Shown: in pieces, positions 2,796-63,664 of the stretch | Layout of the letters: every line of letters begins with the position of its first letter | Numbering within the stretch: position 1 is the first letter of the stretch | IMG/VR virus record: IMGVR_UViG_3300027859_000006 | Span: 1-64,000 of that record | Length of the DNA stretch: 64,000 nucleotides | Direction: 5' to 3' (one strand) | Source of the DNA: a virus | The notes under the pieces: model-generated | What the model was told of the DNA's origin: nothing | Database searches by the model: none | The model's input: the letters and a program-made list of their open reading frames with translations, nothing else | Translations under genes and position numbers: made by a program

Positions 2796-5522
2796 ATGAC
2801 GTTACAAGTTCTTGAGGCTTGCGACTATAACGATAAAAATGAAAATGGATTCTACCGCGTTTTAGCGGTAGATACCTATTTCTGTAAACGTTTTACGGGG
2901 AATGGTGAAAAACCCGCTAATGCCCGTAAGCGATACAAGCTAGGGTCGTTTTACGACCCAGATTGCTTGCAACAACTCTTACCCGTACTTCAAAGCCTAG
3001 AGAATGACCCTCAAAAGTTGGTTATTAGGCATAAGTATTGTAGAGCAAAACAAGGTGATAAGGTTTTTCGTCGAGTAGACGAGGTTGAGCCACATCCATC
3101 GAAAATTATAGCAATAGACGTTGACGGAATCATTCGTCCAGCTCATATATCTGCTACTGACCTTATTTCGCAGGGAAATTACGTCTGTAATTTACTACAT
3201 AAATGCGATCCGGAGGTCTTCCCTGACGACATGGCTTTTATTTGCCAAGCGTCTGCTAAAGCAGGTATGACTGAAAATATCCGTATTCACTTGTGGATAG
3301 AAAATGATTCTAATCTTACGCAAGGGCAACTTCGTAATTTATTTATGCAAGTTAACTCTAGATATAAGGAAATTTTTGATACTAGCGATGAGTTAGTAGA
3401 TACCGCATTGTACCATGACGTACAGGCGCATTATACGGCTGCCCCAATGTTCATTGGTGTAGACGACCCTTTTATTAGAAGCCCAAGAACCGTCTATGAA
3501 TACGGAGTAGTAGCTAGAATACCTAATACTATTTCATCTTACGCAAAGACTGTGCGAGCCTCGGAAGAGGAGGTCTATGAGTACCTGCAACAAATTGATG
3601 GTGGCTCAGAAGCATCAGAAGCGTTTTGGAGAAAATGGTCTGTTGTAGAAAATTGGAATATAGCCGAATCCGGCTTGCGTACAAAAATAATTTCATTATA
3701 CCATGAGGCTGTTCAGGATACCTTTAACATAGATTTACTCGATTCTATGGTTAAAAAAGTCCTAGAGAAGAAACGTCCAGGTTCTGAGCAAGACTACGTA
3801 AACCAAGCTAAAGCCGCAGCTATAATAGAGATAAAAAACAACTCTGTTAGAAGCATTCCCAATGAGTATGAAAAACTTCCTATATCCACTATTCAAAGTG
3901 GGTCTTTACCAAAATATCTAGACATTAACAAAGAAAAAATGCCTAGTGACGGTGTAGTATTTCTAAAAGCATCGTTGGGTACGGGTAAAACACATACTGT
4001 TGAAACTTGGTTAAGAAACGGCTATATTAAAGGAAAATTCTTAGCACTTACTGATACATCCGCGTTAGTAGAATCAAACGCCGCCAGATTCAAAGCTGGA
4101 GACTTTCGCTCGCCTCAAGCAAGGTTAGACTTCGCTACTGGAGCACTGGATAGATTATCAGGAACTCTACATAGCTTAGTAAAGATTAAAGATTTCACTA
4201 GAGACTTTGATTTCTTATTTATTGATGAAGCTGACTCGGTACTAAACAACCTATTGTTTGCTAAGATTATCGATGATGAAGTTAGGTTTCAAATTAGGGA
4301 AATTTTATTTGAATTACTCACTTATACTAAAGTGGTAGTTTTATCTGATGGAGACTTATCGGAAGAGACTGTAGCGCAATACATAGAGCTAGTTGAAGGT
4401 AACAGAGATTTTTACCGAGTAGATCACTATCGCCCAAATTTAAAAAATATACCTGCTTATCGACACCACAAAGAGTCCTCTATATGGGGAGCTGTTCAAG
4501 GGTCGTTAGAGACAGGTTCTAGGGCGCTGGTCGTTACCGACCAAGGGCCCGACAAGCTTAATATAATGCAGAAAACTCTATCAAGAGCCTGCCCAACCAA
4601 AAACATAAAGGTAGCCCATGCAAATTCTAAAATGGATTCAGACGTACAGCAAATCATTAACGATACAGACGTTGCACTCGAAGGCATGCGAGTGGATGCT
4701 CTCCTATGCTCCCCTAGCGTCACTAATGGAGTTGACTTTAGCTATTTCGATGCAGTTTTCGTAATAACTAAGACTTCTAACCATACTCCAAATATGCGAT
4801 TCCAGGCTTTAATGCGTGAGCGTGATCCTAGTGAAGTTCATTATTTTTTTAGTAATATCAAAGGATACGTTACCGGATATAAGGACTCTAAGGTAGAATC
4901 GGGATGGTTTGAAAAAGCTAGACATAGTTTTGCTCTAAGGAGAGAACGAGAGTTCAGGTCTTACTTAGGTACATTTAATTACTACCTAATTAGAGCAGGA
5001 TGCAAAATCGAAGCCATTACAGACCCTTATGAGCCGCCAGACGAAGCTGCAGCTAAAGAAGATTACTATATCGAAAGAGCAACAGCGTTACTAAATTCTA
5101 AGGCAGATTCATTCATACCAAGGCACAACGATGCCTATGAGTTGAAAATGCTTTATTGTGCGTTATACGACGTAGATGAAGACAGTATCAGCTTTGACGA
5201 TGCTCATGCTTTTGTTCAGTTAAAGATTGAAGAGAAGCTAGACTTTTTACACTCCATTATCCCAGTGTTCTGGGAAGAAATTAGTAAAGCATCTACTCAG
5301 AAGCTAATGGTAGCTCTTAGAGAGAAAGGTAAGCACTTTTACTTAGCAACAGGACAACAAGCTAGACCAAGCATGGCTTATGCCAAAAATGTCCTTAAAA
5401 GGTGTATGATAGAAACATTAGACGATGTAGAAGAGGTAAAAGAGTTGTATAGACGCTATTGCTTGTTCAAGGGCTACGAGAATCCACTTAATAAAGAGGA
5501 AAAAGCCTGTGAAATCGTTTGA
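2796..5522 (+). CDS. obp: Replication origin-binding protein (N-terminal AEP/prim-pol-like domain plus UL9-like SF2 helicase)
   Basis: IAIDVDG, IHLW and DTALY motifs; Walker A ASLGTGKT; FIDEAD; SPSVTNGVDF; T5 synteny. Confidence 0.85.
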   Translation: MTLQVLEACDYNDKNENGFYRVLAVDTYFCKRFTGNGEKPANARKRYKLGSFYDPDCLQQLLPVLQSLENDPQKLVIRHKYCRAKQGDKVFRRVDEVEPHPSKIIAIDVDGIIRPAHISATDLISQGNYVCNLLHKCDPEVFPDDMAFICQASAKAGMTENIRIHLWIENDSNLTQGQLRNLFMQVNSRYKEIFDTSDELVDTALYHDVQAHYTAAPMFIGVDDPFIRSPRTVYEYGVVARIPNTISSYAKTVRASEEEVYEYLQQIDGGSEASEAFWRKWSVVENWNIAESGLRTKIISLYHEAVQDTFNIDLLDSMVKKVLEKKRPGSEQDYVNQAKAAAIIEIKNNSVRSIPNEYEKLPISTIQSGSLPKYLDINKEKMPSDGVVFLKASLGTGKTHTVETWLRNGYIKGKFLALTDTSALVESNAARFKAGDFRSPQARLDFATGALDRLSGTLHSLVKIKDFTRDFDFLFIDEADSVLNNLLFAKIIDDEVRFQIREILFELLTYTKVVVLSDGDLSEETVAQYIELVEGNRDFYRVDHYRPNLKNIPAYRHHKESSIWGAVQGSLETGSRALVVTDQGPDKLNIMQKTLSRACPTKNIKVAHANSKMDSDVQQIINDTDVALEGMRVDALLCSPSVTNGVDFSYFDAVFVITKTSNHTPNMRFQALMRERDPSEVHYFFSNIKGYVTGYKDSKVESGWFEKARHSFALRREREFRSYLGTFNYYLIRAGCKIEAITDPYEPPDEAAAKEDYYIERATALLNSKADSFIPRHNDAYELKMLYCALYDVDEDSISFDDAHAFVQLKIEEKLDFLHSIIPVFWEEISKASTQKLMVALREKGKHFYLATGQQARPSMAYAKNVLKRCMIETLDDVEEVKELYRRYCLFKGYENPLNKEEKACEIV

Positions 5523-7408: not shown

Positions 7409-8066
7409 TCTTACCGCAGGATCTGGTAAGCTAGAATTTCACAATAAAAACCGACCAGAGCATATCTATAGTGTAGAAGATGTATCTGAGCTAGTCTTCA
7501 AGGTAAAAGATATGTTCTTAGACTCCCCAGTCCTACTAGGTGGTTCTCTAGCAACATTTCACTGTCTACCAGAGCCTAGCTTAAAATTTAAGTATGCGCG
7601 AACAATGAATAACTCTGACATTGATATATTTATCCTAGAGCGTGGCGATCGTAGGCTTGCTACTTATGTATTCAACCAGCTTATTACGGTTCACTTAGGT
7701 TGTGTAGACTTAGAAAAGCCTGGAGACCCTGAATACTACCTAATGAAAGGTATACGAAAAATATACTCTCTTCATAGTGGTAAGTATAACCGCAAGGTTA
7801 ACCTTATTATAGTAGACGGCGGTGTGTATTCTAATAGTGTAGACAATTTCTTGCGAGAAGCCATGGGGCACGATTTAGCTATGTGCGCTTACTTAGCCCC
7901 TGTCTCAGTTGAATCACCCATAAAAAAGATTACTACACGTAACTTTAATGAAAGTATCGTATCACGTCGTGTTAAGTATAAGTCTAGACTATTAAATACT
8001 GATGCTCTAGCTAAGCTGAACACACGAGTGGACGCGTTAGGGTTTACTAAGTCAGAAATTCATTAA
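7395..8066 (+). CDS. Putative nucleotidyltransferase (Pol-beta superfamily)
   Basis: VLLGGS ... SDIDIFI (hGGS + DxD) motif and later VNLIIVD strand. Confidence 0.55.
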   Translation: MKTSNLTAGSGKLEFHNKNRPEHIYSVEDVSELVFKVKDMFLDSPVLLGGSLATFHCLPEPSLKFKYARTMNNSDIDIFILERGDRRLATYVFNQLITVHLGCVDLEKPGDPEYYLMKGIRKIYSLHSGKYNRKVNLIIVDGGVYSNSVDNFLREAMGHDLAMCAYLAPVSVESPIKKITTRNFNESIVSRRVKYKSRLLNTDALAKLNTRVDALGFTKSEIH

Positions 8067-8132: not shown

Positions 8133-8528
8133 ATGTCTGACTGGACACCTGAAGCAAAAGATGAACTAATCGCGCAATACGTAACAGAAATTGAAAAATT
8201 TCCAGAAGCAGAGCGTGGCGACCACAGTGCGGAAATCGTGAAGAGCTTATCAGAGCAATTTGATAAGACTGTTAACGGTGTACGTATTATCTTATCAAAA
8301 GCTGACGTTTACGTCAAGAAAACTCCAACCGCTAAAGCAGCTAAATCTGCTGACGGCTCAACTGGCGCTAAGCGTGTTAATAAAGCACAAGCAATTGAAG
8401 AACTAAAAACTGCAATTGCAACTATCGACGAAGACCTAATCGACGAAGATATCGTGACTAAGTTAACAGGTAAAGCTGCGCAGTACTTCACAAGCGTTCT
8501 AACACAAGCAACAGCACTAAAGGGGTAA
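8133..8528 (+). CDS. D3: T5 D3-like DNA-binding protein
   Basis: WTPEAKDELIAQY ... TVNGVRIILSKADVYVKK ... RVNKAQA ... KLTGKAAQYF; synteny. Confidence 0.8.
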   Translation: MSDWTPEAKDELIAQYVTEIEKFPEAERGDHSAEIVKSLSEQFDKTVNGVRIILSKADVYVKKTPTAKAAKSADGSTGAKRVNKAQAIEELKTAIATIDEDLIDEDIVTKLTGKAAQYFTSVLTQATALKG

Positions 8529-9139: not shown

Positions 9140-10094
9140 AACTGCTTCTGAAGCCTACTACGATGGAAACCCAATCCTTACTAATGAGCAATACGACACA
9201 TTAGAACGTATGTACGGACAAACTATCTCTGGTAACGGAGACACACCTCACGCATTTAGAATGTACTCACTTCAAAAGTGCTACGACATGCAGGATGCCC
9301 CACTAAGCATCGAAAGATGTACCAAAACTCCAAAGCTAGACGGAGCTGCTATTTCATTATTATACGTCCAAGGAAATTATACATTGTCTCTTACTAGAGG
9401 TGATGGATTTAAGGGACGCGATATAACAGATAAAATCCGACAGCTTGTTCCGCATAAGATCGAAACCGACAAGGATTTAGTACAAATTACTGGAGAAGTA
9501 GTTTGTAGTCACACTATGCCTAATGCGCGGAATTACGTATCTGGAGCTTTAAACCTTAAAGACTTCGACGAGTACTCTAGCAAGGTTGTAGAAGGATCTA
9601 TTGAATTTGTTGCCTACTCTGTACAAACCTCGGAATCTTCTATTGGTATTACTACTTCATATCCGGATGACATGAAGTTCTTATACCGAAACGGATTTTT
9701 GCCTGTAACTGAACTACAGATAGAAGATGGTTTAGCCTCTGCTTATGGAACAGCAAGCTTTCTAACAGACGGAATTGTGTACAGACTATCTAGTAACGCT
9801 CAATTCAAAGCGCATGGCTTTACCTCTAAGTTTCCAAAAGGAGCTTTTGCTTTCAAGGAGAATGCTGAGGCTGTGGAGACTACTCTTTTAGACGTAGTTT
9901 GGCAGACTGGAAAAAGCGGCAAGGTTTCTCCAGTGGCGATTCTAGAACCTGTTATGGTAGGGGATGCGAAAGTATCTCGCGCTACTCTTAACAATATAGA
10001 ATTTATAAAGGCGCTAGACTTAGAAATAGGATGCAAGGTAGGCATTGTTCGCAGCGGTGAAATTATACCTTGTGTAGTTTCCCGTATTGATTAG
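9123..10094 (+). CDS. ligA: NAD-dependent DNA ligase, subunit A (adenylation + OB domains)
   Basis: YYDG/EQYD, KLDG active site, TRGDG, RATLNN, RSGEIIP. Confidence 0.95.
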   Translation: MKELLKTASEAYYDGNPILTNEQYDTLERMYGQTISGNGDTPHAFRMYSLQKCYDMQDAPLSIERCTKTPKLDGAAISLLYVQGNYTLSLTRGDGFKGRDITDKIRQLVPHKIETDKDLVQITGEVVCSHTMPNARNYVSGALNLKDFDEYSSKVVEGSIEFVAYSVQTSESSIGITTSYPDDMKFLYRNGFLPVTELQIEDGLASAYGTASFLTDGIVYRLSSNAQFKAHGFTSKFPKGAFAFKENAEAVETTLLDVVWQTGKSGKVSPVAILEPVMVGDAKVSRATLNNIEFIKALDLEIGCKVGIVRSGEIIPCVVSRID

Positions 10095-10124
10095 AGTACA
10101 CGGTGATATAAATCAAAAAATCAC

Positions 10125-10153
10125 TTGTAATTTTTGACAAACGTGTATATAAT
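10125..10153 (+). promoter_or_regulatory. Sigma-70 promoter between ligA and ligB
   Basis: TTGTAA-17-TATAAT. Confidence 0.8.
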
Positions 10154-50745: not shown

Positions 50746-52728
50746 TTAATTTAATCCTATAAATGAAAAGGAGAAACCTGGAATAGTAATACTATTTTCT
50801 AGTCCTCCGCTACCGTTAAAGGAGAAGTACGTATAGTCGTACTCTATACCTATAAGGGTGTCTGTAATTTTTACTAAATAAAAGGTACAACGTATAGTAT
50901 ACCAGGTATTCCAATAGGGGTCTCCACTAGGAAGCTCCTCTTTGTCAAATCTATATGTCTCAGAAGTGGAGTAGAAAGGTACTCTAGAAGAGAATGATGA
51001 AAATCCTATAATGCCTTTGTCTTGTGCATATAACTCTTCCCATGACTGTTGATCGCTAGAGTAATCCCATTCCACGGGGGTAACTGAGTAACCCCAGCAG
51101 TCGGAGCTCCTAACCCCTTGGTTATCAAGTATTATTGTTAGGTCTGTCAATATACCTGTACCAGTAACAATACCTTCCCCTTGAGAATTAGTCTCATGAG
51201 ACGGTATATTGAACGTATAAACAGGAGTAGTATGATCTGTGCTTTTGCCCATATACCTCATACGAGTCCTTCCACGACCCGCGTTAAACCAAGTGTTACC
51301 GCCTCGTTTAATTATCCCCTTAGTCATTTCAATGTCCCATCCAGATCCGCCAGATCCGCCAAGAATTTGTACAGCATCACTAGGGTTCTGGCCGGAATAC
51401 ACCCCCAAGGGGTCTATCAGGCCGACTATTGGTATTATAGGATCGGATAGATTCATACTGTTAACATACGAACCGTCGTTCACAATACCTGCATAGGCTA
51501 GGAACATACCTGAGAAATCTGCCCCATCTACTGTGAAGTTATCAGGGTCTAATAGTATTCCAGATGCTCCGGTTTTAGCGGTTTCATAGTTTAAGTCTCT
51601 ACCACTACTAACTACATTGAACTCGTATATCTCAACAGAGTTTATATCTTGAGGTGTCCTAATGTACGTGTCTCCTGAGGTGTAGTAAGCCCCTTCCGAA
51701 CCGTAAGCGAAAGATCCGAGAGTATATTCAGCCTGAGCCAAGTTCTCGTTACTAAAATTGATTTTTCTACTTATTACAGGCGCTCCACCTTTTCGGTTGC
51801 CCAGCTTATCTACAGTAACTACCATAGTTAGACGAGTAGAGCTAGGGGTATAAGATACCAAATTTCCTGTAGTGCCGTCTAATGCGTCTGAGAATTTAAA
51901 TAGCCTATTTACAAGCTCGTCAGTGTGCTCTGTTATTCTAATATATTTTAGGCATTTAATATAGTCAAACATACTATGCATGTAAGTATCATCTCCGTAG
52001 TCTACATTAATACCTACCCAATCCTGAAACCAGTCTGTCGCAGTCTTGCCTGACTCCACGGCGGGCGGAGCCGCCGGGACTACGTTAGGATTACATATAT
52101 GAAGTATCTCATCTCCGGCCCGGTTTACACCAAGAAAGAAGTCGCACGGAGCCTCTGGCTCGGGTCTAGGGGGTGGAGGTGAAAGTAGGGACGCAGATAC
52201 TGTGTTTGAGAAAGGCCCGTAAACTACGTCGCTGCCTGTGCCCTTCACCATGCGGACTTTAAAACTACCCCCTTCCTCATGTATATAACTACTACCCGTG
52301 CCAGTAAATACCGTAGTACCGTTCCTTACGACTTCTACCCTTTCCCCAATATCTGTGTTAGGGTTCCAATCTAGTAATACTCCGTCATACCTACTAGTAG
52401 CGGTCAGTACCCTAGTTTCAGGCTTCACGTGAAATATAATGTTTATGGTGTTACTAGGATATAAATTATCTGTTCTTAGCTGAGCTTTTGTAGCATTAGC
52501 TGGTGGTATTACCTTTAATGAATTGGAACTAGTAGAGGTATTAGCCGACTGCCAGTTTCCACCTACTAGCCAATATAAATGGTACATCCCTGGACTACTA
52601 GGCTCAGTCCATTGCAAGTTAGCATATTTATAAATAGGACTAGTAGAGTTTGATAAGTTTGTTACTTTTTTAGCAGGGTTGTCCGCCACAAAGTAGACGG
52701 ATACCGTTCCAGTTGTATATGTAGCCAT
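50746..52728 (-). CDS. Receptor-binding protein (pb5/Oad position) with N-terminal FN3-like extension
   Basis: Position upstream of terS; FFLG...EILHI ... DTYMHS recalls the pb5 N-terminus, but follows a Pro-rich linker. Confidence 0.65.
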   Translation of the reverse strand: MATYTTGTVSVYFVADNPAKKVTNLSNSTSPIYKYANLQWTEPSSPGMYHLYWLVGGNWQSANTSTSSNSLKVIPPANATKAQLRTDNLYPSNTINIIFHVKPETRVLTATSRYDGVLLDWNPNTDIGERVEVVRNGTTVFTGTGSSYIHEEGGSFKVRMVKGTGSDVVYGPFSNTVSASLLSPPPPRPEPEAPCDFFLGVNRAGDEILHICNPNVVPAAPPAVESGKTATDWFQDWVGINVDYGDDTYMHSMFDYIKCLKYIRITEHTDELVNRLFKFSDALDGTTGNLVSYTPSSTRLTMVVTVDKLGNRKGGAPVISRKINFSNENLAQAEYTLGSFAYGSEGAYYTSGDTYIRTPQDINSVEIYEFNVVSSGRDLNYETAKTGASGILLDPDNFTVDGADFSGMFLAYAGIVNDGSYVNSMNLSDPIIPIVGLIDPLGVYSGQNPSDAVQILGGSGGSGWDIEMTKGIIKRGGNTWFNAGRGRTRMRYMGKSTDHTTPVYTFNIPSHETNSQGEGIVTGTGILTDLTIILDNQGVRSSDCWGYSVTPVEWDYSSDQQSWEELYAQDKGIIGFSSFSSRVPFYSTSETYRFDKEELPSGDPYWNTWYTIRCTFYLVKITDTLIGIEYDYTYFSFNGSGGLENSITIPGFSFSFIGLN

Positions 52729-53063
52729 TATAGTGGTTCCGTACCAGGGCCCCCAGGAGGAGTTCCGGCCTCTTCGTTGATTTCCATCTCAAAGTAATAT
52801 TTATAGGTATTTTGATTAGTTACATTAGAATCTGTATAGATTATGTCACGTTGGATAAAAAACCCCTCGCCCCCGTCCGTTGGTAAGCTGTAATTTCCAG
52901 AAACTTTAGAGAAAGACCCATTGTTAGTAGACCTCATTACGTATCCGTATCCATCTTCTTTAAGTTGTATCCCAGACCCGCCAGAATTCACTCTAACATT
53001 TATAGATACTTCTACTGTAGCCCCTACTATTTCTGCGTTTATTGTACTGTTGTTAGTTGCCAT
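52728..53063 (-). CDS. Small FN3-like virion protein
   Basis: GYVMRS...YTDSNV...YKY FN3-like pattern; RBS AGGAGG; TAATG coupling to the RBP gene. Confidence 0.6.
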   Translation of the reverse strand: MATNNSTINAEIVGATVEVSINVRVNSGGSGIQLKEDGYGYVMRSTNNGSFSKVSGNYSLPTDGGEGFFIQRDIIYTDSNVTNQNTYKYYFEMEINEEAGTPPGGPGTEPL

Positions 53064-53420: not shown

Positions 53421-53804
53421 TTACTCGGTGTCGTCATCCGATCCGCTTTCTAGATCATCGATGATCGCCGCTTGTTGCTCAACAAATGCCGCTAGCGCTT
53501 CAAGTTCTCCCTTGTTCGCCTTTTCCAAGCTGTCAACCGTTAGACCTGTTGTTTCAGCGATTTGCTTAACAACTTCGATTTTACGCGTTGCGCTTGGGTT
53601 GCCCACCTTTGCCTTAGCTTCTGGCGAGATGTATTCGCCCATGCTAACCAACTTCTGACGCGCGCTGTGTTCTGTTACGTCAGAGTCGTATGCAAGCGCT
53701 TTAAACGCTGCCGGTTCAAGCGCCTTGCCACCATTAGCTTTGATAGCTGCCGCGTATGCTGTGCTTAACTTCGCTGTGTTTTCTTCTGTCCAAACTTTAG
53801 CCAT
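53421..53804 (-). CDS. A2: A2-like pre-early DNA-binding / second-step transfer protein
   Basis: WTEENTAKLSTAY, SARQKLVS, KVGNPSATRK, SLEKAN..ELEALA match T5 A2 as recalled. Confidence 0.8.
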   Translation of the reverse strand: MAKVWTEENTAKLSTAYAAAIKANGGKALEPAAFKALAYDSDVTEHSARQKLVSMGEYISPEAKAKVGNPSATRKIEVVKQIAETTGLTVDSLEKANKGELEALAAFVEQQAAIIDDLESGSDDDTE

Positions 53805-53899: not shown

Positions 53900-55561
53900 T
53901 TATGCAACAACTTTTTGCGGGTTCAAGGTGATTAATTGTACCTGTCCGTTGCTGTATTCCATCATGTGACCGTGATCCCACGATGACGCGCCCCCACGGT
54001 TATAGCCTTGATTTAGTCGAGCGGTAACGCCTGTAGTAAACACTGAGCCTATTATGCATGGGCTGTGGGTGTGTCCTGTTATTAGGTTTAAATTCCAGTC
54101 TTTGAACTGATTTGGGTTTCCTGCGCTCCCGTTTGCGCCCTTGTGCCCATGCTGCGAATAATCGAATTTAAGCGGCTTAAAAGGCTTATCCATTCGACCA
54201 AAATGCACATTATTGGGTAACTCTGGCAATGTGGTTAGATCGGCATTTTCTAAGGCGATCTGTAACGCGTTTTTCTCATGTTCACCTTGGTCTAAGGTAT
54301 CGCACACTAACCAATTTAACAGATAGTATAATTTGCTGTTATGGCTGTCCTGCTTGGGATTAACGCTACTATCATCCAGCCAATTGTCGAGCGCTGAGTT
54401 GTGATTGCTCTCGGTGATCGATACGGTATCAACTATGGTAGATAATTCGGTTAACTGTACGATTACCTGTTTAAGGTCGTTCTCAACGCTTTCATGTCGA
54501 TTTGCGTACAAGTGCTTCCCACTGTTACGGTTATGGTGAGACCTTGTGCTAAAGTGTAAAATATCGTCAACTGCGATCACACTTGGTTTAACTTTGTCAA
54601 GAAAGTCCATTGTCTTTTGCCAATATGCATGATCGTAAACTTCACAATGTAGATCACCAAGTTTTCCGGCTTCTGGTAATTTACCGTAATAATATTCGAG
54701 TTCAGGTAACACCACATTCAATGATCCGTCATCGCCTTGAAAAACGTTGGTAACGTTATAACCACCGTCACACTTGTAAACGATCATGGCTGCCTGTTTA
54801 TGGTCTTTTTCCGCTTCTGCTCCTGCGCGACTTCTGGTGTAGTTGTACGCTGTGCAGCTACCAGTAGTGACAGCCTTTGTAATTGATTGATCGTTAAGTC
54901 GTGGTAGCGTTTTGTACTGCTGCTTGGGGCTTGCTACTACCGTGATTAGTTCACCACTATTCAGCTTGGCCGCTGCATTAATAGGCAATTTGTTAGTTGG
55001 TAAAACTGCTGCGGTGCTAGCGATCAAACAGGCGTTTTTCTCGAATAGCCAACAATCGTCAAGCTGTAAAAACGGCGTGACCTTAGGGTTAAATACTTCG
55101 GCTTCGGTCTCTACCGCTGGACTAAAGGCGTTTTTGTTATAGTAAACGGGCATTACCATTAAACGCGCATCTAGTAGGCTTGCTCTCATATCATCGATCA
55201 TAGCAAGAAGTTGATCCTCAAAGCCTGTGGTAATAGTGTTATTTTGTGCGCTTGTAATTACGAAAACATCACCGTCTAGAACTGGCAATAAATCGCGCTG
55301 TGATTGAGTGTAACCAACTTGTGTATCTGCCGCTGGTTTAGTCGCTGCACTTGGCTTTTTCGCTTTCTCAGCCTCTCTCAGGCTCTTTAGATGCTCAACA
55401 ACTAGCGGCATTAAAATAGCTGCATCGCCTTTAAGATCAAGGTTATGGATCGCATCCTCAACAACTTCCAAGCGTGAATCACGTTTACGCTTACCTAAAA
55501 GGTTATTTTCCTCGCACTCTGCGCAAAGTAGATCAAAGTTTTTATCGTTTAAATGTTTCAT
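53900..55561 (-). CDS. A1: A1 pre-early nuclease (host DNA degradation / second-step transfer)
   Basis: VITSAQNNT, TTGSCT, GDLHC, SNHN, HGH, GHTHSP, GYNRGGASSW; metallophosphoesterase fold; 553 aa. Confidence 0.9.
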   Translation of the reverse strand: MKHLNDKNFDLLCAECEENNLLGKRKRDSRLEVVEDAIHNLDLKGDAAILMPLVVEHLKSLREAEKAKKPSAATKPAADTQVGYTQSQRDLLPVLDGDVFVITSAQNNTITTGFEDQLLAMIDDMRASLLDARLMVMPVYYNKNAFSPAVETEAEVFNPKVTPFLQLDDCWLFEKNACLIASTAAVLPTNKLPINAAAKLNSGELITVVASPKQQYKTLPRLNDQSITKAVTTGSCTAYNYTRSRAGAEAEKDHKQAAMIVYKCDGGYNVTNVFQGDDGSLNVVLPELEYYYGKLPEAGKLGDLHCEVYDHAYWQKTMDFLDKVKPSVIAVDDILHFSTRSHHNRNSGKHLYANRHESVENDLKQVIVQLTELSTIVDTVSITESNHNSALDNWLDDSSVNPKQDSHNSKLYYLLNWLVCDTLDQGEHEKNALQIALENADLTTLPELPNNVHFGRMDKPFKPLKFDYSQHGHKGANGSAGNPNQFKDWNLNLITGHTHSPCIIGSVFTTGVTARLNQGYNRGGASSWDHGHMMEYSNGQVQLITLNPQKVVA

Positions 55562-55626: not shown

Positions 55627-56142
55627 TTAATGACCGTGAAAAGGAACGTGAATTGCTTTCATGTTCAGGCGCTGTGCCATTTGGCAGTTTGCTAGATTAT
55701 CATCGACCAAAAATGATCGCGACAATTCAGCCGATGAAAATGCGCGTGTTAGGTGGTACTCTTTTAATTCAAAATCTCGTCTACGATCATTTTCGCCCTC
55801 TCTGGAAAAGATTGCGGTCGGTTTGATCCCGTTTTTACGCAACCACTTTTCAGAGTTCTTGCACATAACGCGAGCGGTACAAACAAAAAATGGTCTACCT
55901 GCATCAGTTAGGAACTGCGGCACTTCTGCCAGTGGCATGATCTGATCTTTAGCAATATTTGCAGCCGTTGAAAGTTTACGATACATTTCAAGGTTAAGCG
56001 ATCCGTCAGGGTGTATCGCTTGGCGGTGTGTAGCATCGATCACTACACCATCAAGATCAAAAATAGGTATAATGCTCTGATCCAATAGGATCGCATCAGT
56101 CATTTGAAGCGCTGCCGCTCTTGTATTTTGAATTGTTAACAT
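55627..56142 (-). CDS. HAD-family phosphatase (Dmp-like / PNK phosphatase-like)
   Basis: FDLDG motif I, CTAR motif II, K, VDD motif IV; pre-early location. Confidence 0.8.
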   Translation of the reverse strand: MLTIQNTRAAALQMTDAILLDQSIIPIFDLDGVVIDATHRQAIHPDGSLNLEMYRKLSTAANIAKDQIMPLAEVPQFLTDAGRPFFVCTARVMCKNSEKWLRKNGIKPTAIFSREGENDRRRDFELKEYHLTRAFSSAELSRSFLVDDNLANCQMAQRLNMKAIHVPFHGH

Positions 56143-56299: not shown

Positions 56300-57035
56300 T
56301 GCTACCCTACCAGCAAATGCAAATGAGAACTATTCTCATCTGACCGGCTCCGCCAGGTCGGAACGACCAAACGCAAATGAGAATGATTCGCATTCAACCG
56401 CGCCGATTTTGGGTCGCTTTCCCAGCTATGACTTATTATTGCATTTACGTGTAGCATTGTCTAGAACTAATTTATTATAAGAATGAATTTATTTAGGCGA
56501 TTTTGTTATATAGTGAATTGTGGCATTCTAGCAATTACTATGCCAACTCAAAAACCGTGCCAAAGTCGCAAATCGCGTATAAGCGGTCTAAATGGCTCTG
56601 TATTGAGAGCTGGATGCAAGCCAAGCAAGTGCATTGCTATACCGTAGAAGTCTTCTCATATTGCCATTGTGTAAGTTGTTGATTTTAAAGGGAAAAATAA
56701 TGCTTGACAAGCCGATGGCACGATTTTTTCTATTGCAAACGACGTGCCAACTTTTATTGGTCAATTTCACTACTTTTTAGTCAATTTCGCTTATGGCACG
56801 GACTTTGCTAGGTAAATACGAATGCAAATGATAATGATTCGCATTTGACCGCGCCGAAAAATGGCATGGAAGTTGCTAGGGAAGTTATCAACAGGTACGT
56901 GTGAGTAAGTGAAGTTATGCACAATACTGTATAAATGTACAAGCGCTCAGCGGACGCTGGTGGACTTATCCACAGAAAATTGTGGATAAATATACCTGTA
57001 TAGATATACAGTAGTTTTAAGTTGTGGGTAACTCA
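56300..57035. promoter_or_regulatory. Cluster of host-factor binding sites (Fur, sigma-54, IHF, DnaA, LexA)
   Basis: Fur-like 56322-40, 56376-94, 56827-45; sigma-54 TGGCAY-N5-TTGCW 56530-45(-), 56734-49(-), 56794-809(+), 56862-77(+); IHF 56672-84(-); DnaA 56966-74 and 56981-89 plus 3 one-mismatch boxes; LexA 56996-57011. Confidence 0.75.
56375..56410 (+). repeat. 36-bp exact direct repeat (second copy 60121-60156)
   Basis: AAATGAGAATGATTCGCATTCAACCGCGCCGATTTT in both places; variants at 56826-56860 and 53348-53376. Confidence 0.9.
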
Positions 57036-60660: not shown

Positions 60661-61329
60661 TTATATAAGGTTTATAGCGGAAAAGCAAGGGATTTCTTGG
60701 CTTATTTTGGGCTTTTCAGGGAATCTTATATCAGGCTTAAATGCGTACCATTTACCATCTAGAGTATAAGAATTATGATACTTTGCGCAATATATAGTGT
60801 CAAAGTTATATATACCCTCATCTTCTACATACTCCCAGAACTCAGCTAAAGACCATCCGGCCGGTTTGACCTCCGAAGGAGGGAGGTAGCCGAGAACCCT
60901 GTAGGCGTTGTTGTCTATTAAAAATTGTTCAGTCTTGTCACCCACCAGCGCCTCTATTTCAGAGTACAAATCCGGTGACAGTTTATTTTTAGTCAGTACC
61001 TCTGTAGCAGCAAGTCTCTTTAAAGCGGCTACCCCTGTTTTTCTAACTAGAGGTAGGATCTCGGAACAGACGTAAAGCTGCCATTCTCTTGCTGTTGGCA
61101 TATCAGATCGCATTAAAAAGAAGTAAAGAACCTGCTCAGCATACAATTTACGTCCGTCGGAGCACGGTGCACTCTCGATACGTAAATCAGCATTACGCTT
61201 AAGAAAATCTCGTATTGCTCGCTTAGGCTCTGAGTAACCTAGCTTCTCTGCAAATTCTTCAAGGTCAAAATAAAATTCGTTGTTTATCTCGTAGAGTGAG
61301 ACACCCTTTTCTAAGTTTAGTATATTCAT
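60661..61329 (-). CDS. BRO-N domain protein
   Basis: FYFDLEEFAEKLGYSEPKRAI ... EQVLYFFLMRSDMPTAREWQLYVCSEILPLVRKTG. Confidence 0.8.
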   Translation of the reverse strand: MNILNLEKGVSLYEINNEFYFDLEEFAEKLGYSEPKRAIRDFLKRNADLRIESAPCSDGRKLYAEQVLYFFLMRSDMPTAREWQLYVCSEILPLVRKTGVAALKRLAATEVLTKNKLSPDLYSEIEALVGDKTEQFLIDNNAYRVLGYLPPSEVKPAGWSLAEFWEYVEDEGIYNFDTIYCAKYHNSYTLDGKWYAFKPDIRFPEKPKISQEIPCFSAINLI

Positions 61330-61382
61330 AGGTTTCAGTATATCAAAAATAGTCTAGGAGGGCAAATGATTTAACAAAACAC

Positions 61383-61411
61383 TTGATTCGAGACGTTTTT
61401 TAACGTATAAT
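61383..61411 (+). promoter_or_regulatory. Sigma-70 promoter
   Basis: TTGATT-17-TATAAT. Confidence 0.8.
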
Positions 61412-61442
61412 ACTTGTATTGAATGAATGAGGAAGAACGAAT

Positions 61443-61754
61443 ATGTGGAACGAACAAAAATCTGCTCAACTAGTTAAGACTTACAAAACTAACGGCTACG
61501 ATGCTGCGCAAGCGGCGAAGGCGCTTGGAGTATCGGAACGCTCTGCTATCTCTAAGCTGGTGGCTCTAGGAGAGTATGTTAAGCCTGTTAAGGTACAAGC
61601 TTCCACGGGGCGCATTAATAAAACTCAGTACATTTCTGCGGTCGAGGCAATGCTAGGAGTCAAGTCTGGTAAACTAGCGGGTCTCTCTGGGGCTAGTGCT
61701 AATGCGATAGAAGAATTAGCGGCTGCTCTTGTAAAACTAGGAGACCGTGCATAA
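61443..61754 (+). CDS. Second A2-family DNA-binding protein
   Basis: WNEQKSAQLVKTY, VSERSAISKLVALGEYVKP, RINKTQYI; parallels ORF 53421-53804. Confidence 0.75.
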   Translation: MWNEQKSAQLVKTYKTNGYDAAQAAKALGVSERSAISKLVALGEYVKPVKVQASTGRINKTQYISAVEAMLGVKSGKLAGLSGASANAIEELAAALVKLGDRA

Positions 61755-62002
61755 TGGATGTTATTGTTGGAATTTGGACTGTATTAACCCTTCTAGGGTA
61801 TCTAGCCTACTTCGCAGGCGACAGAGCGACTGTAGTAATGTATGACCTAGAGGTGTATCAGGGTAGAGTATTCAATTGGGCGGATGCAGTTAGTATTATC
61901 CTAGGGGTGGTATCGGGGCACTATTGGCTGTCTTTGCTAGTGCCGCTCAGCTCGATTCTCATGTATAAGCGCACTCGCAAAAAGTTGGGACGTCCCAGCT
62001 AG
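61754..62002 (+). CDS. Small membrane protein
   Basis: TAATG coupling, hydrophobic segments, basic C-terminus. Confidence 0.65.
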   Translation: MDVIVGIWTVLTLLGYLAYFAGDRATVVMYDLEVYQGRVFNWADAVSIILGVVSGHYWLSLLVPLSSILMYKRTRKKLGRPS

Positions 62003-62094
62003 CGCCGCTCCGCGGCGAGCCCTTTCCCATCTATAACATGTATTATACGCGGAATTGAGCCCGTTTGCAAGTGATTTTTAGTAAGAAACTGGTG

Positions 62095-62560
62095 AGGCTA
62101 GGGTGGGTTTTGGGAAAGACTCGGGGAATTTTAGTCGCGCCTAACGGTCGTTTACGACCTGCGCCTCCGAAAAAGCTAAAAAATTGCTTGCGAGGCTACA
62201 AACCCAAATTTCGCCACTTCGCGGCGGATTAGGGTAAAATGTTGCAAACCCAATCTTGGCCGTAAACGGCCGGGTTATGGGTAGAAGTGTAATAGACCTA
62301 GGGGAAGGTTGGGAGGGATTTGGGATACAAGTGTAATCCGCATCGAGGAAAGAATTTGGGTAAGTGTTGCTAAGGTTCTCGCCGGAACAATGCCGAAGGC
62401 ATAGAGTGGGCGAGGATATAGCAGAAGTGTAATAGAAGTATAGTAGAGTCTAGGGAGAAGTCTAGGCTAGAGTTGGAAAGGCAGCGGGCGGGGCGAGTCC
62501 AGGGCCGTATGTTGGGAAGGGTCGGGGAAGGTTGGGATGGATTTGGGATTAAGTGGGGAA
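62095..62560 (+). other. G-skewed non-coding block with G-quadruplex motifs, hairpins and repeats
   Basis: G3 tract sets at 62101-126, 62301-324, 62514-558; repeat GGGGAAGGTTGGGA(G/T)GGATTTGGGAT at 62301 and 62524. Confidence 0.7.
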
Positions 62561-62682
62561 ACATTCCTCTGATATAGCTATAAGTATAACTATAAATAAC
62601 TATCCCTCCTAGTTTTTTGATACTCAAAATTTTAAAATTGGTACTTTTTCGATAGATACAATTATGGCAATAAAATCTTTTT

Positions 62683-62836
62683 GTTGTGTTCGCTTAAAGC
62701 GTCTATTTCTTAGTATTGGTTAGGCTTGTCAAAGTTTTTTGGGGTGTGCTTTAAACAGAGTCGCACCCCACTTTGAGCCAAACCGACTAAGAAGTCGCTA
62801 AAGCTCACATCAATAGAGAGTCATATAACTCTCTAG
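62683..62836. other. Long imperfect inverted repeat (candidate sRNA or DNA stem-loop)
   Basis: TTCTTAGT/ACTAAGAA, TCAAAG/CTTTGA, TGGGGTG/CACCCCA nested arms; adjacent TAGAGAGT/ACTCTCTA hairpin; minus-strand promoter TTTACA-17-TACAAT at 62848-76. Confidence 0.55.
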
Positions 62837-62887
62837 AAGATGTTAATATTGTAGCAGATTTTTTTCTCCATGTAAAGTATTTTTCTT

Positions 62888-63160
62888 TTACTCACCAATG
62901 GGTTCTGACCACAATGCTTCAAATGGTTCTTTGCAGTAAACAACATATGACCAAGACGTGTAACTTGGGTTACTTTTTCGGTCGACTTTGTTTTCTTCTA
63001 GGATTTGAAGATATCGGTCGTATTTTTGCTTAACAGTTCTTTCCTTATCTTCCTTGAACAAGCGTTGTGTGACTTGCATATGCTTTAACAGCATTTCTTG
63101 AGTGTGGTTTGGGAATTTGTTGCAAAACTGTCTTAGTTTAACTTTGTAGGCTTCTTTCAT
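62888..63160 (-). CDS. Early hypothetical protein (paralog of 63157-63411)
   Basis: MKEAYKVKLRQFCNK...SWSYVVY; RBS AAGGAG. Confidence 0.75.
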   Translation of the reverse strand: MKEAYKVKLRQFCNKFPNHTQEMLLKHMQVTQRLFKEDKERTVKQKYDRYLQILEENKVDRKSNPSYTSWSYVVYCKEPFEALWSEPIGE

Positions 63161-63411
63161 TTCTTAAAATACTCCTTATAGCTCTCTTTAAAATATACTA
63201 CATACTTCCAGCTTGTCCAGCTAGGAGGGTTGGTAGGGTCTTTCAACTCTTCTGCGCTTACTCGTTCTACGAACGCTTCATAACACTCCTTAACCGAGAG
63301 GTGCAGCTTATCAGCACGAAAGCGTTTTCTAGTACTATCTAAAATTTGCTCTGTAGGGTTTTTATACTTATTACAGAACTGCTTTATTTTAACTTTGTAT
63401 GATTCTTTCAT
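63157..63411 (-). CDS. Early hypothetical protein (paralog of 62888-63160)
   Basis: MKESYKVKIKQFCNK...SWKYVVY. Confidence 0.75.
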   Translation of the reverse strand: MKESYKVKIKQFCNKYKNPTEQILDSTRKRFRADKLHLSVKECYEAFVERVSAEELKDPTNPPSWTSWKYVVYFKESYKEYFKK

Positions 63412-63418
63412 GGTGCTG

Positions 63419-63664
63419 TCAACTTCTATTAATCTTTTTTATTTCTGCTTTAATAGCTTTTAATCCTCCGACTTTTCTTAGTATCTTCCATCGGGTGTAC
63501 ATTACTTCTAGCTTAGACATATCTTTGTAACCTTTAATCCACCAAGTAGCACTGGTGTAGGCGACGTAGTCGCCAGCTCCTAGGTTTACAACAGCTTGTC
63601 GGACTAGAGGACAGCTAACTCCAAAGAACTCAGTACAAATACCATATCTTAATGCGTTAAACAT
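63419..63664 (-). CDS. Early hypothetical protein
   Basis: Operon context, overlap with the upstream ORF. Confidence 0.6.
   Translation of the reverse strand: MFNALRYGICTEFFGVSCPLVRQAVVNLGAGDYVAYTSATWWIKGYKDMSKLEVMYTRWKILRKVGGLKAIKAEIKKINRS

Follow-up and report, generated by a model that had tools for sequence, protein, structure and literature searches.

A strand-biased G-tract block at the presumed inner end of the terminal repeat in an uncultured T5-like marine phage, and its possible role in terminus formation

Background

Two steps in the life of T5-like phages have stayed open since the 1960s-80s: the stop of T5 DNA transfer after 8% of the genome, and the cutting and duplicating of terminal repeats of 8-10 kb. 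Papers from 2020 to 2026 still call the T5 injection stop signal unmapped. In Davison's comparison the T5 shear point was estimated near position 9618, with DnaA-box inverted repeats and DRE candidates to its left, and this preprint makes no mention of G-richness, purine bias or quadruplexes. Nicks of the T5 type occur on the minus strand, opposite the G-rich strand. The annotation of T5 puts nick 1 at 9661-9668.

Recognition sites of the lambda cosB kind are located immediately inside the cut made by terminase, and the T7 concatemer junction, a signal for processing, has a pause site for the polymerase on its right edge. The herpesvirus pac1 motif, located in terminal repeats, combines a T-rich core between G tracts with a conserved G-quadruplex (G4) potential (PMC13595911).

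We analyzed the first 64 kb (64,000 nucleotides, referred to below as the window) of IMG/VR record IMGVR_UViG_3300027859_000006, a 108,151-bp circularly assembled marine virus contig from an uncultured phage. An earlier note, made from the sequence alone, had pointed to a G-rich and hairpin-bearing block at 62095-62560 and had proposed that it acts as the physical stop of DNA injection or as a terminal-repeat processing signal. We provide here the composition and conservation of this block, together with comparisons to other T5-like genomes and to unrelated phages ending in direct repeats. The new elements are a variant of the repeat end carrying canonical G4 motifs, the conservation of its tracts within the clade, independent tandem arrays at the equivalent position of other genomes and a comparison across families. 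This clade presents the cleanest form of one conserved component, a strand-pure array of G tracts with canonical G4 motifs. Together with the clusters of G or C runs found in K-like, SPO1-like and T7-like phages, it points to a testable and possibly general feature of terminus formation, which could also help to find phage termini where assemblies collapse the repeats.

Results

Identity of the phage and organization of its pre-early region

The contig carries T5-type replication and structural genes as well as a gene for the A1 DNA-transfer protein, and the phage is T5-like (Demerecviridae). Among named phages, Vibrio phage phi 3 is the closest, with an A1 47% identical. Closer uncultured relatives are G001/L003 (the same sequence as one TARA Oceans contig) and G002/L004, which form a clade with the present phage (A1 92-93% identical, 86-87% nucleotide identity over the region), and a sister clade is represented by L145 (A1 64% identical). 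The boundaries of the terminal repeat are not visible because the repeat is collapsed in the circular assembly. The “direct terminal repeat” of G001 is an assembly overlap of 99 bp, and our own contig has its two ends abutting within G001, indicating that both assemblies are circular with the long repeat collapsed; the contig ends were consequently rejected as a source of information on the repeat boundary.

In the T5 orientation, the region is composed of a leftward operon, a central gap, rightward small ORFs, a second gap bearing the block and leftward early ORFs:

53421-53804, minus strand: A2a, homologue of T5 A2 (34% identical), in the leftward operon
53900-55561, minus strand: A1 DNA-transfer protein, assigned by homology, in the leftward operon; it identifies the pre-early, terminal-repeat region
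55627-56142, minus strand: HAD/PNK-like gene, in the leftward operon
56.16-57.2 kb: central non-coding gap
56885-56990 or 56885-57020, no strand assigned: cluster of DnaA boxes with palD-like palindromes, in the central gap and not in the G block
57.2-62.0 kb, plus strand: rightward pre-early small ORFs
61443-61754, plus strand: A2b, a further paralogue (the second) of A2, the DNA-binding protein of T5; encoded to the left of the block at a distance of about 340 bp and present in this clade only
61754-62002, plus strand: last rightward pre-early ORF
62003-62887: gap holding the G block, followed by leftward early ORFs
62003-62017, plus strand: terminator-like hairpin directly after the last pre-early ORF (-8.0 kcal/mol), conserved in L145
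62042-62070, minus strand: sigma-70-like promoter leading leftward from the block edge (TTGCAA, 17-nt spacer, TATAAT; 10/12 matches)

The earlier note had placed the block about 9 kb from an inferred left end. This distance is reasonable, considering that the last late-region ORFs stop at 53063 and that A1 follows at 53900-55561, but the left repeat end is itself inferred, its boundary being collapsed in the assembly. The position of A2a downstream of A1 is the reverse of the T5 order, while A2b stands two genes before the G block and is 34% identical to A2a. Both hexamers of the promoter and their 17-nt spacing are kept in L145 with a different spacer sequence, and the predicted promoter is antisense to the last pre-early genes. 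A Bro-N/anti-repressor-like ORF (60661-61329, minus strand) lies on the opposite strand within the rightward pre-early operon. The central gap contains, between 56.2 and 57.0 kb, DnaA boxes, palD-like palindromes and Fur-box-like repeats, elements which in T5 are partly located at the repeat end; if they constituted the stop signal, the first-step transfer of this phage would amount to only about 4 kb.

Composition, G4 motifs, repeats and hairpins of the block

The block is a non-coding, one-strand G-rich sequence in which the following elements were recognized, a canonical G4 motif being defined as four tracts of at least three G (G3+) separated by loops of up to 7 nt, and a relaxed one by loops of up to 12 nt:

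62095-62560, plus strand: whole G-tract block, non-coding, top strand G-rich, 23 G3+ runs
62101-62126, plus strand: G-tract cluster 1, four tracts with a longest loop of 8; tracts kept and loops changed in L003 and L004
62145-62159, no strand assigned: small hairpin with a 5-bp stem and a 4-nt loop (-6.3 kcal/mol, z -1.9), unchanged in all three members of the clade and overlapping the nick-like site with its 3' arm
62157-62164, plus strand: CCTGCGCC, a nick-1-like word resembling in sequence the annotated T5 major nick 1 (7.9%)
62199-62272, plus strand: two units of a CAAACCCAA-type word then a hairpin; unit order swapped in L003
62283-62296, plus strand: copy 1 of a 14-mer repeat, with an exact copy at 62423-62436 and a third one at 62434-62447 (86%)
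62301-62326, plus strand: copy 1 of a 26-mer, containing the canonical G4 motif 62301-62324
62378-62414, no strand assigned: nested hairpin, the most significant fold of the block (-9.5 kcal/mol, z -3.5), with no change in either stem among relatives
62486-62558, plus strand: G-tract cluster 3, including copy 2 of the 26-mer and the G4 motif 62514-62536; best conserved part of the block

The composition of the block (G 35%, C 15%) is highly non-random: its 466 bp hold 23 G3+ runs and two C3+ runs, compared with a genome-wide mean of 2.52 G3+ runs per 466 bp (sd 1.93) and a maximum of 10 elsewhere (Poisson P ~6e-15), and its GC skew of +0.42 is the highest of the genome. Two canonical G4 motifs (62301-62324 and 62514-62536) are present, the relaxed definition adding a third at 62101-62126 and widening the last one to 62486-62558, with G4Hunter scores of up to 1.88. 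No other plus-strand G4 motif occurs in the 108,151-bp genome. Every feature described in the earlier note was recovered at the position given there, and the one-strand G-rich block is confirmed as an observation. The duplicated 26-mer (62301-62326 and 62524-62549, 96% identical) and the repeated 14-mer (exact at 62283 and 62423) are equally real. Both hairpins that the earlier note considered stable are present, with modest folding energies for DNA (-6.3 and -5.6 kcal/mol, z about -1.9), the stronger fold being the nested hairpin at 62378-62414.

According to an energy model, the top strand would form three quadruplexes (about -20 kcal/mol) if single-stranded, cluster 1 being predicted to give a three-layer G4 under the same assumption, and no gain is predicted for the bottom strand. 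Quadruplexes may form in this clade.

No match to the block was found among 50,697 phage records by nucleotide similarity search, nor among viral contigs by an exact-motif scan, and Rfam models gave no match over 61000-63500 at E up to 1. A coding role was rejected, as the three genomes of the clade have different open frames there, the only common frame being interrupted by a 1-nt indel.

Conservation of the tracts within the clade

The three members of the clade retain 23, 23 and 25 G3+ runs, while their loops and the order of the repeat units vary. Identity at tract G positions reaches 93% and 85%, the corresponding values being about 71% at the remaining G and 65-71% at bases other than G (Fisher P = 1.7e-5), and this better conservation of tract G than of loops and other bases indicates that the tracts themselves are under constraint. 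L145, from the sister clade, carries 15 G runs and short words in common with the window, with no four-tract motif.

G-rich repeat ends among T5-like genomes

Whole genomes were compared by ranking 400-bp windows on top-strand G3+ runs and on GC skew, run-density metrics that were chosen after the data had been seen. The non-coding junction at the right repeat end ranked first for both runs and skew in this phage, G001, T5, phi 3 and 234P3, the top-ranked positions being 9.7-10.3 kb in T5 (repeat end 10139) and 7.65-8.5 kb in phi 3. In IW18, which with phi 3 and 234P3 makes up the Vibrio phages of the comparison, the repeat end ranked first for runs, within the last 450 bp of the 7,737-bp repeat. 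It ranked first for skew in Pectobacterium phage DU_PP_V and in Sepoy, and the signal is weaker in PR1. The G-run maximum of Sepoy, located at the end of the record, is coding sequence and was set aside as not relevant, the repeat end of this phage peaking in skew alone. The last G run is separated from the right repeat end by 35 bp in T5 (10139), 35 bp in Sepoy (end mapped by PhageTerm, 10295) and 13 bp in IW18; in phi 3, most of the G block is found beyond the annotated repeat end (7769), on its right, and the tracts of PR1 straddle the end. The same G pattern was retrieved 5-8 kb upstream of A1 in partial viral contigs, and was not seen in distant, non-T5-like contigs bearing A1. The earlier note had considered that a lack of G-tracts at the equivalent position of relatives would speak against its proposal; such tracts are present.

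These genomes share a common order consisting of a nick-1-like word, DRD-type iterons, a G-rich stretch and the repeat end, of which the window shows the nick-like word (62157) and no more than two degenerate iterons. T5, Sepoy and IW18 also have the CCTGCGCC core, to the left of their G blocks, and similar cores are present in L067 and L075. Between genera the sequence differs while the G-tract character persists. The four-tract G4 motif, kept at the repeat end within the clade (L003, L004), is absent from this position in T5, Sepoy, PR1, IW18, DU_PP_V, 234P3, phi 3 and L145. Clusters of three tracts with short loops are present at the repeat end in the clade and as a single one in phi 3, and T5, Sepoy (near 9.8 kb), PR1, IW18, DU_PP_V and 234P3 have none or only one each. 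Across these genomes, the conserved property is the presence of one-strand G tracts at the repeat end, and not a quadruplex motif or a given sequence.

Two further lineages display independent G4-capable tandem arrays of unrelated sequence. L073 has about 20 tandem GGGGATCTT units at the equivalent position, and L067 a 10-bp G-tract tandem repeat. The L073 array (1400-1600) is telomere-repeat-like, and a second G-tract repeat occurs at the end of this contig (1-200, minus strand of the locus).

In this phage, G001, L145 and T5, the word GGGAAG followed after 1-2 nt by TTGRG is found nowhere but at the repeat end; having been defined post hoc and being missing in the hold-out genomes, among them the close T5 relative Sepoy, it is weak evidence and was not retained. 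No common cut-site motif was seen between the left and right ends of T5.

Counterpart in T5 Repeat Region 3

The block corresponds to the distal stretch of T5 “Repeat Region 3”, rich in G and poor in C, where the terminal repeat ends on its right (inner) side, and it was rightly placed by the earlier note where the injection stop signal is sought. In both phages, a non-coding gap separates a rightward pre-early operon from leftward early genes, and a nick-1-like word and repeats are followed by a G-rich, C-poor stretch beside the repeat end. They differ by the length of this stretch, 231 bp in T5 (9905-10135, G 37%, C 7%) and 466 bp here, and by the lack of canonical G4 motifs in T5, whereas three G4 motifs are carried by the present block. 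The IRD'-spacer-IRC' arrangement with paired DnaA boxes and palD was not found in 62.0-62.9 kb, and the DRD iterons (GTGCAAATCCGAC type) have no exact or near match in the block. The CAAACCCAA-type words at 62199 and 62245 are possibly degenerate versions of the T5 DRD iterons and may represent remnants of them.

Repeat ends of unrelated phages

The comparison was extended to a small sample of other phages with terminal repeats, using a metric picked after seeing the data. In phage K (L155, 30% GC), the densest G-run window of the genome (8300-8500) falls on the end of the long terminal repeat (LTR) at 8486, with a G5/G4/G5/G3 cluster 25-60 bp inside this end. The densest C-run window of SPO1 (L148) is located at 13.1-13.5 kb, where the terminal redundancy ends and, according to the record, the first unique gene follows, and in A511 (L168) the densest window of G/C runs (3040-3260) spans the repeat end at 3125. 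These Herelleviridae resemble the T5-like phages in having their densest G/C-run cluster on the right boundary of a long repeat, but they belong to unrelated families, with far shorter clusters whose runs are partly palindromic and lie on both strands.

The short repeats of T7, SP6 and phiKMV rank first or second genome-wide for G/C runs, and that of N4 does not. The repeats of T7, SP6 and phiKMV differ from those of T5-like phages in being of 160-414 bp and gene-free, and processing of the T7 type needs a phage RNA polymerase, which T5-like phages do not have.

Discussion

A proposed repeat-end element for terminus formation and packaging

The explanation that we favour, while giving it somewhat less than an even chance, is that the block is a cis-acting element marking the end of the repeat, involved in terminus formation and in the initiation of packaging. 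It agrees with one of the two roles put forward in the earlier note, that of a terminal-repeat processing signal, which fits the comparative data best. The position of the block, its strand bias, the conservation of its tracts and the recurrence of G tracts at the repeat ends of other phages are observed; a packaging role and a binding partner are what we infer from them. DNA of the T5 type leaves the capsid left end first, so that the right end would be packaged first on a last-in, first-out principle. The G-tract array would then occupy the first few hundred bp entering the prohead, just inside the terminase cut. The signal could be read by terminase or by a partner protein, either as repeated G-tract words or through an unusual duplex geometry, and folded quadruplexes would not be required.

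Several lines of evidence point to this role. The block is non-coding, lies between convergent pre-early and early genes and stands about 9 kb from the presumed left end. G-rich ends recur in T5-like genomes, at 13-35 bp from the mapped ends of T5, Sepoy and IW18. Selection acts on the tract G, with the run count kept and no frame conserved, and across genera it is composition rather than sequence which is kept, as further illustrated by the arrays of L073 and L067. The clusters of K, SPO1, A511, T7, SP6 and phiKMV, and the parallel with herpesvirus pac1 (PMC13595911), argue in the same direction. The latter is an analogy only, based on G tracts with G4 potential in terminal repeats, since pac1 is a short defined motif of proven function from a eukaryotic virus. 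Other observations count against a repeat-end element: the annotated end of phi 3 at 7769 precedes most of its G block and the tracts of PR1 straddle the end, the circular assembly hides the repeat boundary of the present genome, a one-strand bias is unneeded for a binding site and is not common to K, SPO1 and A511, and the ranking relied on post-hoc run-density metrics, with a coding G-run maximum in Sepoy.

Possible injection stop and quadruplex formation

The other role proposed in the earlier note is that of the physical stop of injection. In this reading, the copy of the block in the left repeat would halt transfer after about 9 kb, possibly as a pause-resume signal. Non-B DNA or a stiff G-tract duplex would be sensed in the tail or portal, or the tracts would serve as a docking array for A2-type proteins, which would release it later. 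Such a role is possible and less well supported, and on balance we consider it rather unlikely. The position of the block fits the length of the first step in T5, for which the stop signal is still unmapped, and the top-strand G bias extends family-wide in phages carrying A1 and A2. This clade has an additional A2 paralogue whose gene is 340 bp away, a nick-1-like site inside the block on the C-rich strand could permit local strand opening, and three quadruplexes (about -20 kcal/mol) are predicted for the top strand if single-stranded. The proposal of a quadruplex as the physical stop is nevertheless not supported by the comparison, as the canonical motif is missing in T5, in most relatives and in the sister clade, and packaged DNA is duplex, making a quadruplex unlikely without strand separation. 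A G4 plug stopping injection is less likely than a role in defining the end or in packaging.

The T5 G block is moreover located 300-500 bp to the right of the shear point near 9618, on the other side from the published candidates (DnaA boxes and DRE), whose equivalents in this phage are at 56.9 kb, within the central gap. With its length of about 250 nm, the T5 tail would have room for roughly 700 bp. DNA 300-700 bp past the shear point would hence be in the tail or portal at the pause, where a phage-side stop at the G block could conceivably act. Clusters of G/C runs also mark the repeat ends of phages without known two-step injection; to our knowledge such injection has not been reported in K, SPO1 or A511, and this shifts the weight toward a terminus and packaging function.

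A broader proposal combines both roles. G-tract arrays at the right repeat end would be a general structure-based signal, read by terminase or portal, and in T5-like phages also along the ejection path, as a quadruplex of the un-nicked strand or as an A-like stiff duplex, the same element setting the genome end and the first-step stop. It would explain why these two points coincide, and we regard it as unlikely.

Possible roles in transcription termination and protection of the ends

The block could also be a Rho-dependent terminator or insulator, stopping leftward early transcripts and keeping them out of the repeat. The leftward RNA would be C-rich and G-poor, with a C/G ratio of 2.3 here and of 4-5 in T5 and Sepoy, a rut-like composition; leftward early genes flank the block in all T5-like genomes examined, and no clear intrinsic terminator was found between the last early ORF and the block. 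Conserved hairpins do occur at 62814-62835 and 62740-62773 (z -3.3 and -2.7), in AT-rich sequence that separates the block from the first leftward early ORF; as no T run follows either of them, they are not clear intrinsic terminators. The likeness to rut sites is one of composition of the predicted RNA, and rut sites do not have the tract periodicity and conservation seen in the block. Long perfect tandem arrays and specific tract conservation exceed the requirements of a rut site, the repeat-end clusters of K, SPO1 and A511 occupy both strands, and the distance from the block to the last early ORF varies from 330 bp here to about 700 bp in T5, so that this function seems quite improbable.

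In the right-hand repeat of all T5-like genomes, the G-rich strand points with its 3' side to the genome terminus, like a telomere. The block could fold after resection or RecBCD entry, or work with Chi sites, to limit degradation and promote the joining of repeats into concatemers. Pooled over nine T5-like genomes, which are partly related, 16 of the 31 top-strand Chi octamers (GCTGGTGG) fall in terminal repeats representing about 9% of the sequence. Among 168 octamers matched for composition, Chi comes first by total and by in-repeat count, and its orientation would suit RecBCD entry from the right genome end. No Chi octamer is present within the block, however, the nearest being at 61556, and the host may have a Chi sequence other than GCTGGTGG. 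Protection of the ends is for these reasons very doubtful as the function of the block.

The absence of any specific function, with slippage-prone repeats and a local mutational bias accumulating in a gene-free repeat junction, would account for the fast sequence turnover between genera, the rearranged units of close relatives and the tandem arrays, but is the least probable of all, given that tract G are conserved above their neighbours, that strand and position are constant across subfamilies and that the composition of the block shows no excess of T as deamination of C would give.

Additional observations

Over the whole window, top-strand Chi octamers are located at 52499, 56956, 60455 and 61556. 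Outside the window, the genome has a sole canonical G4 motif on the minus strand, at 88156-88172, which by eye resembles the T-arm and acceptor end of a tRNA gene.
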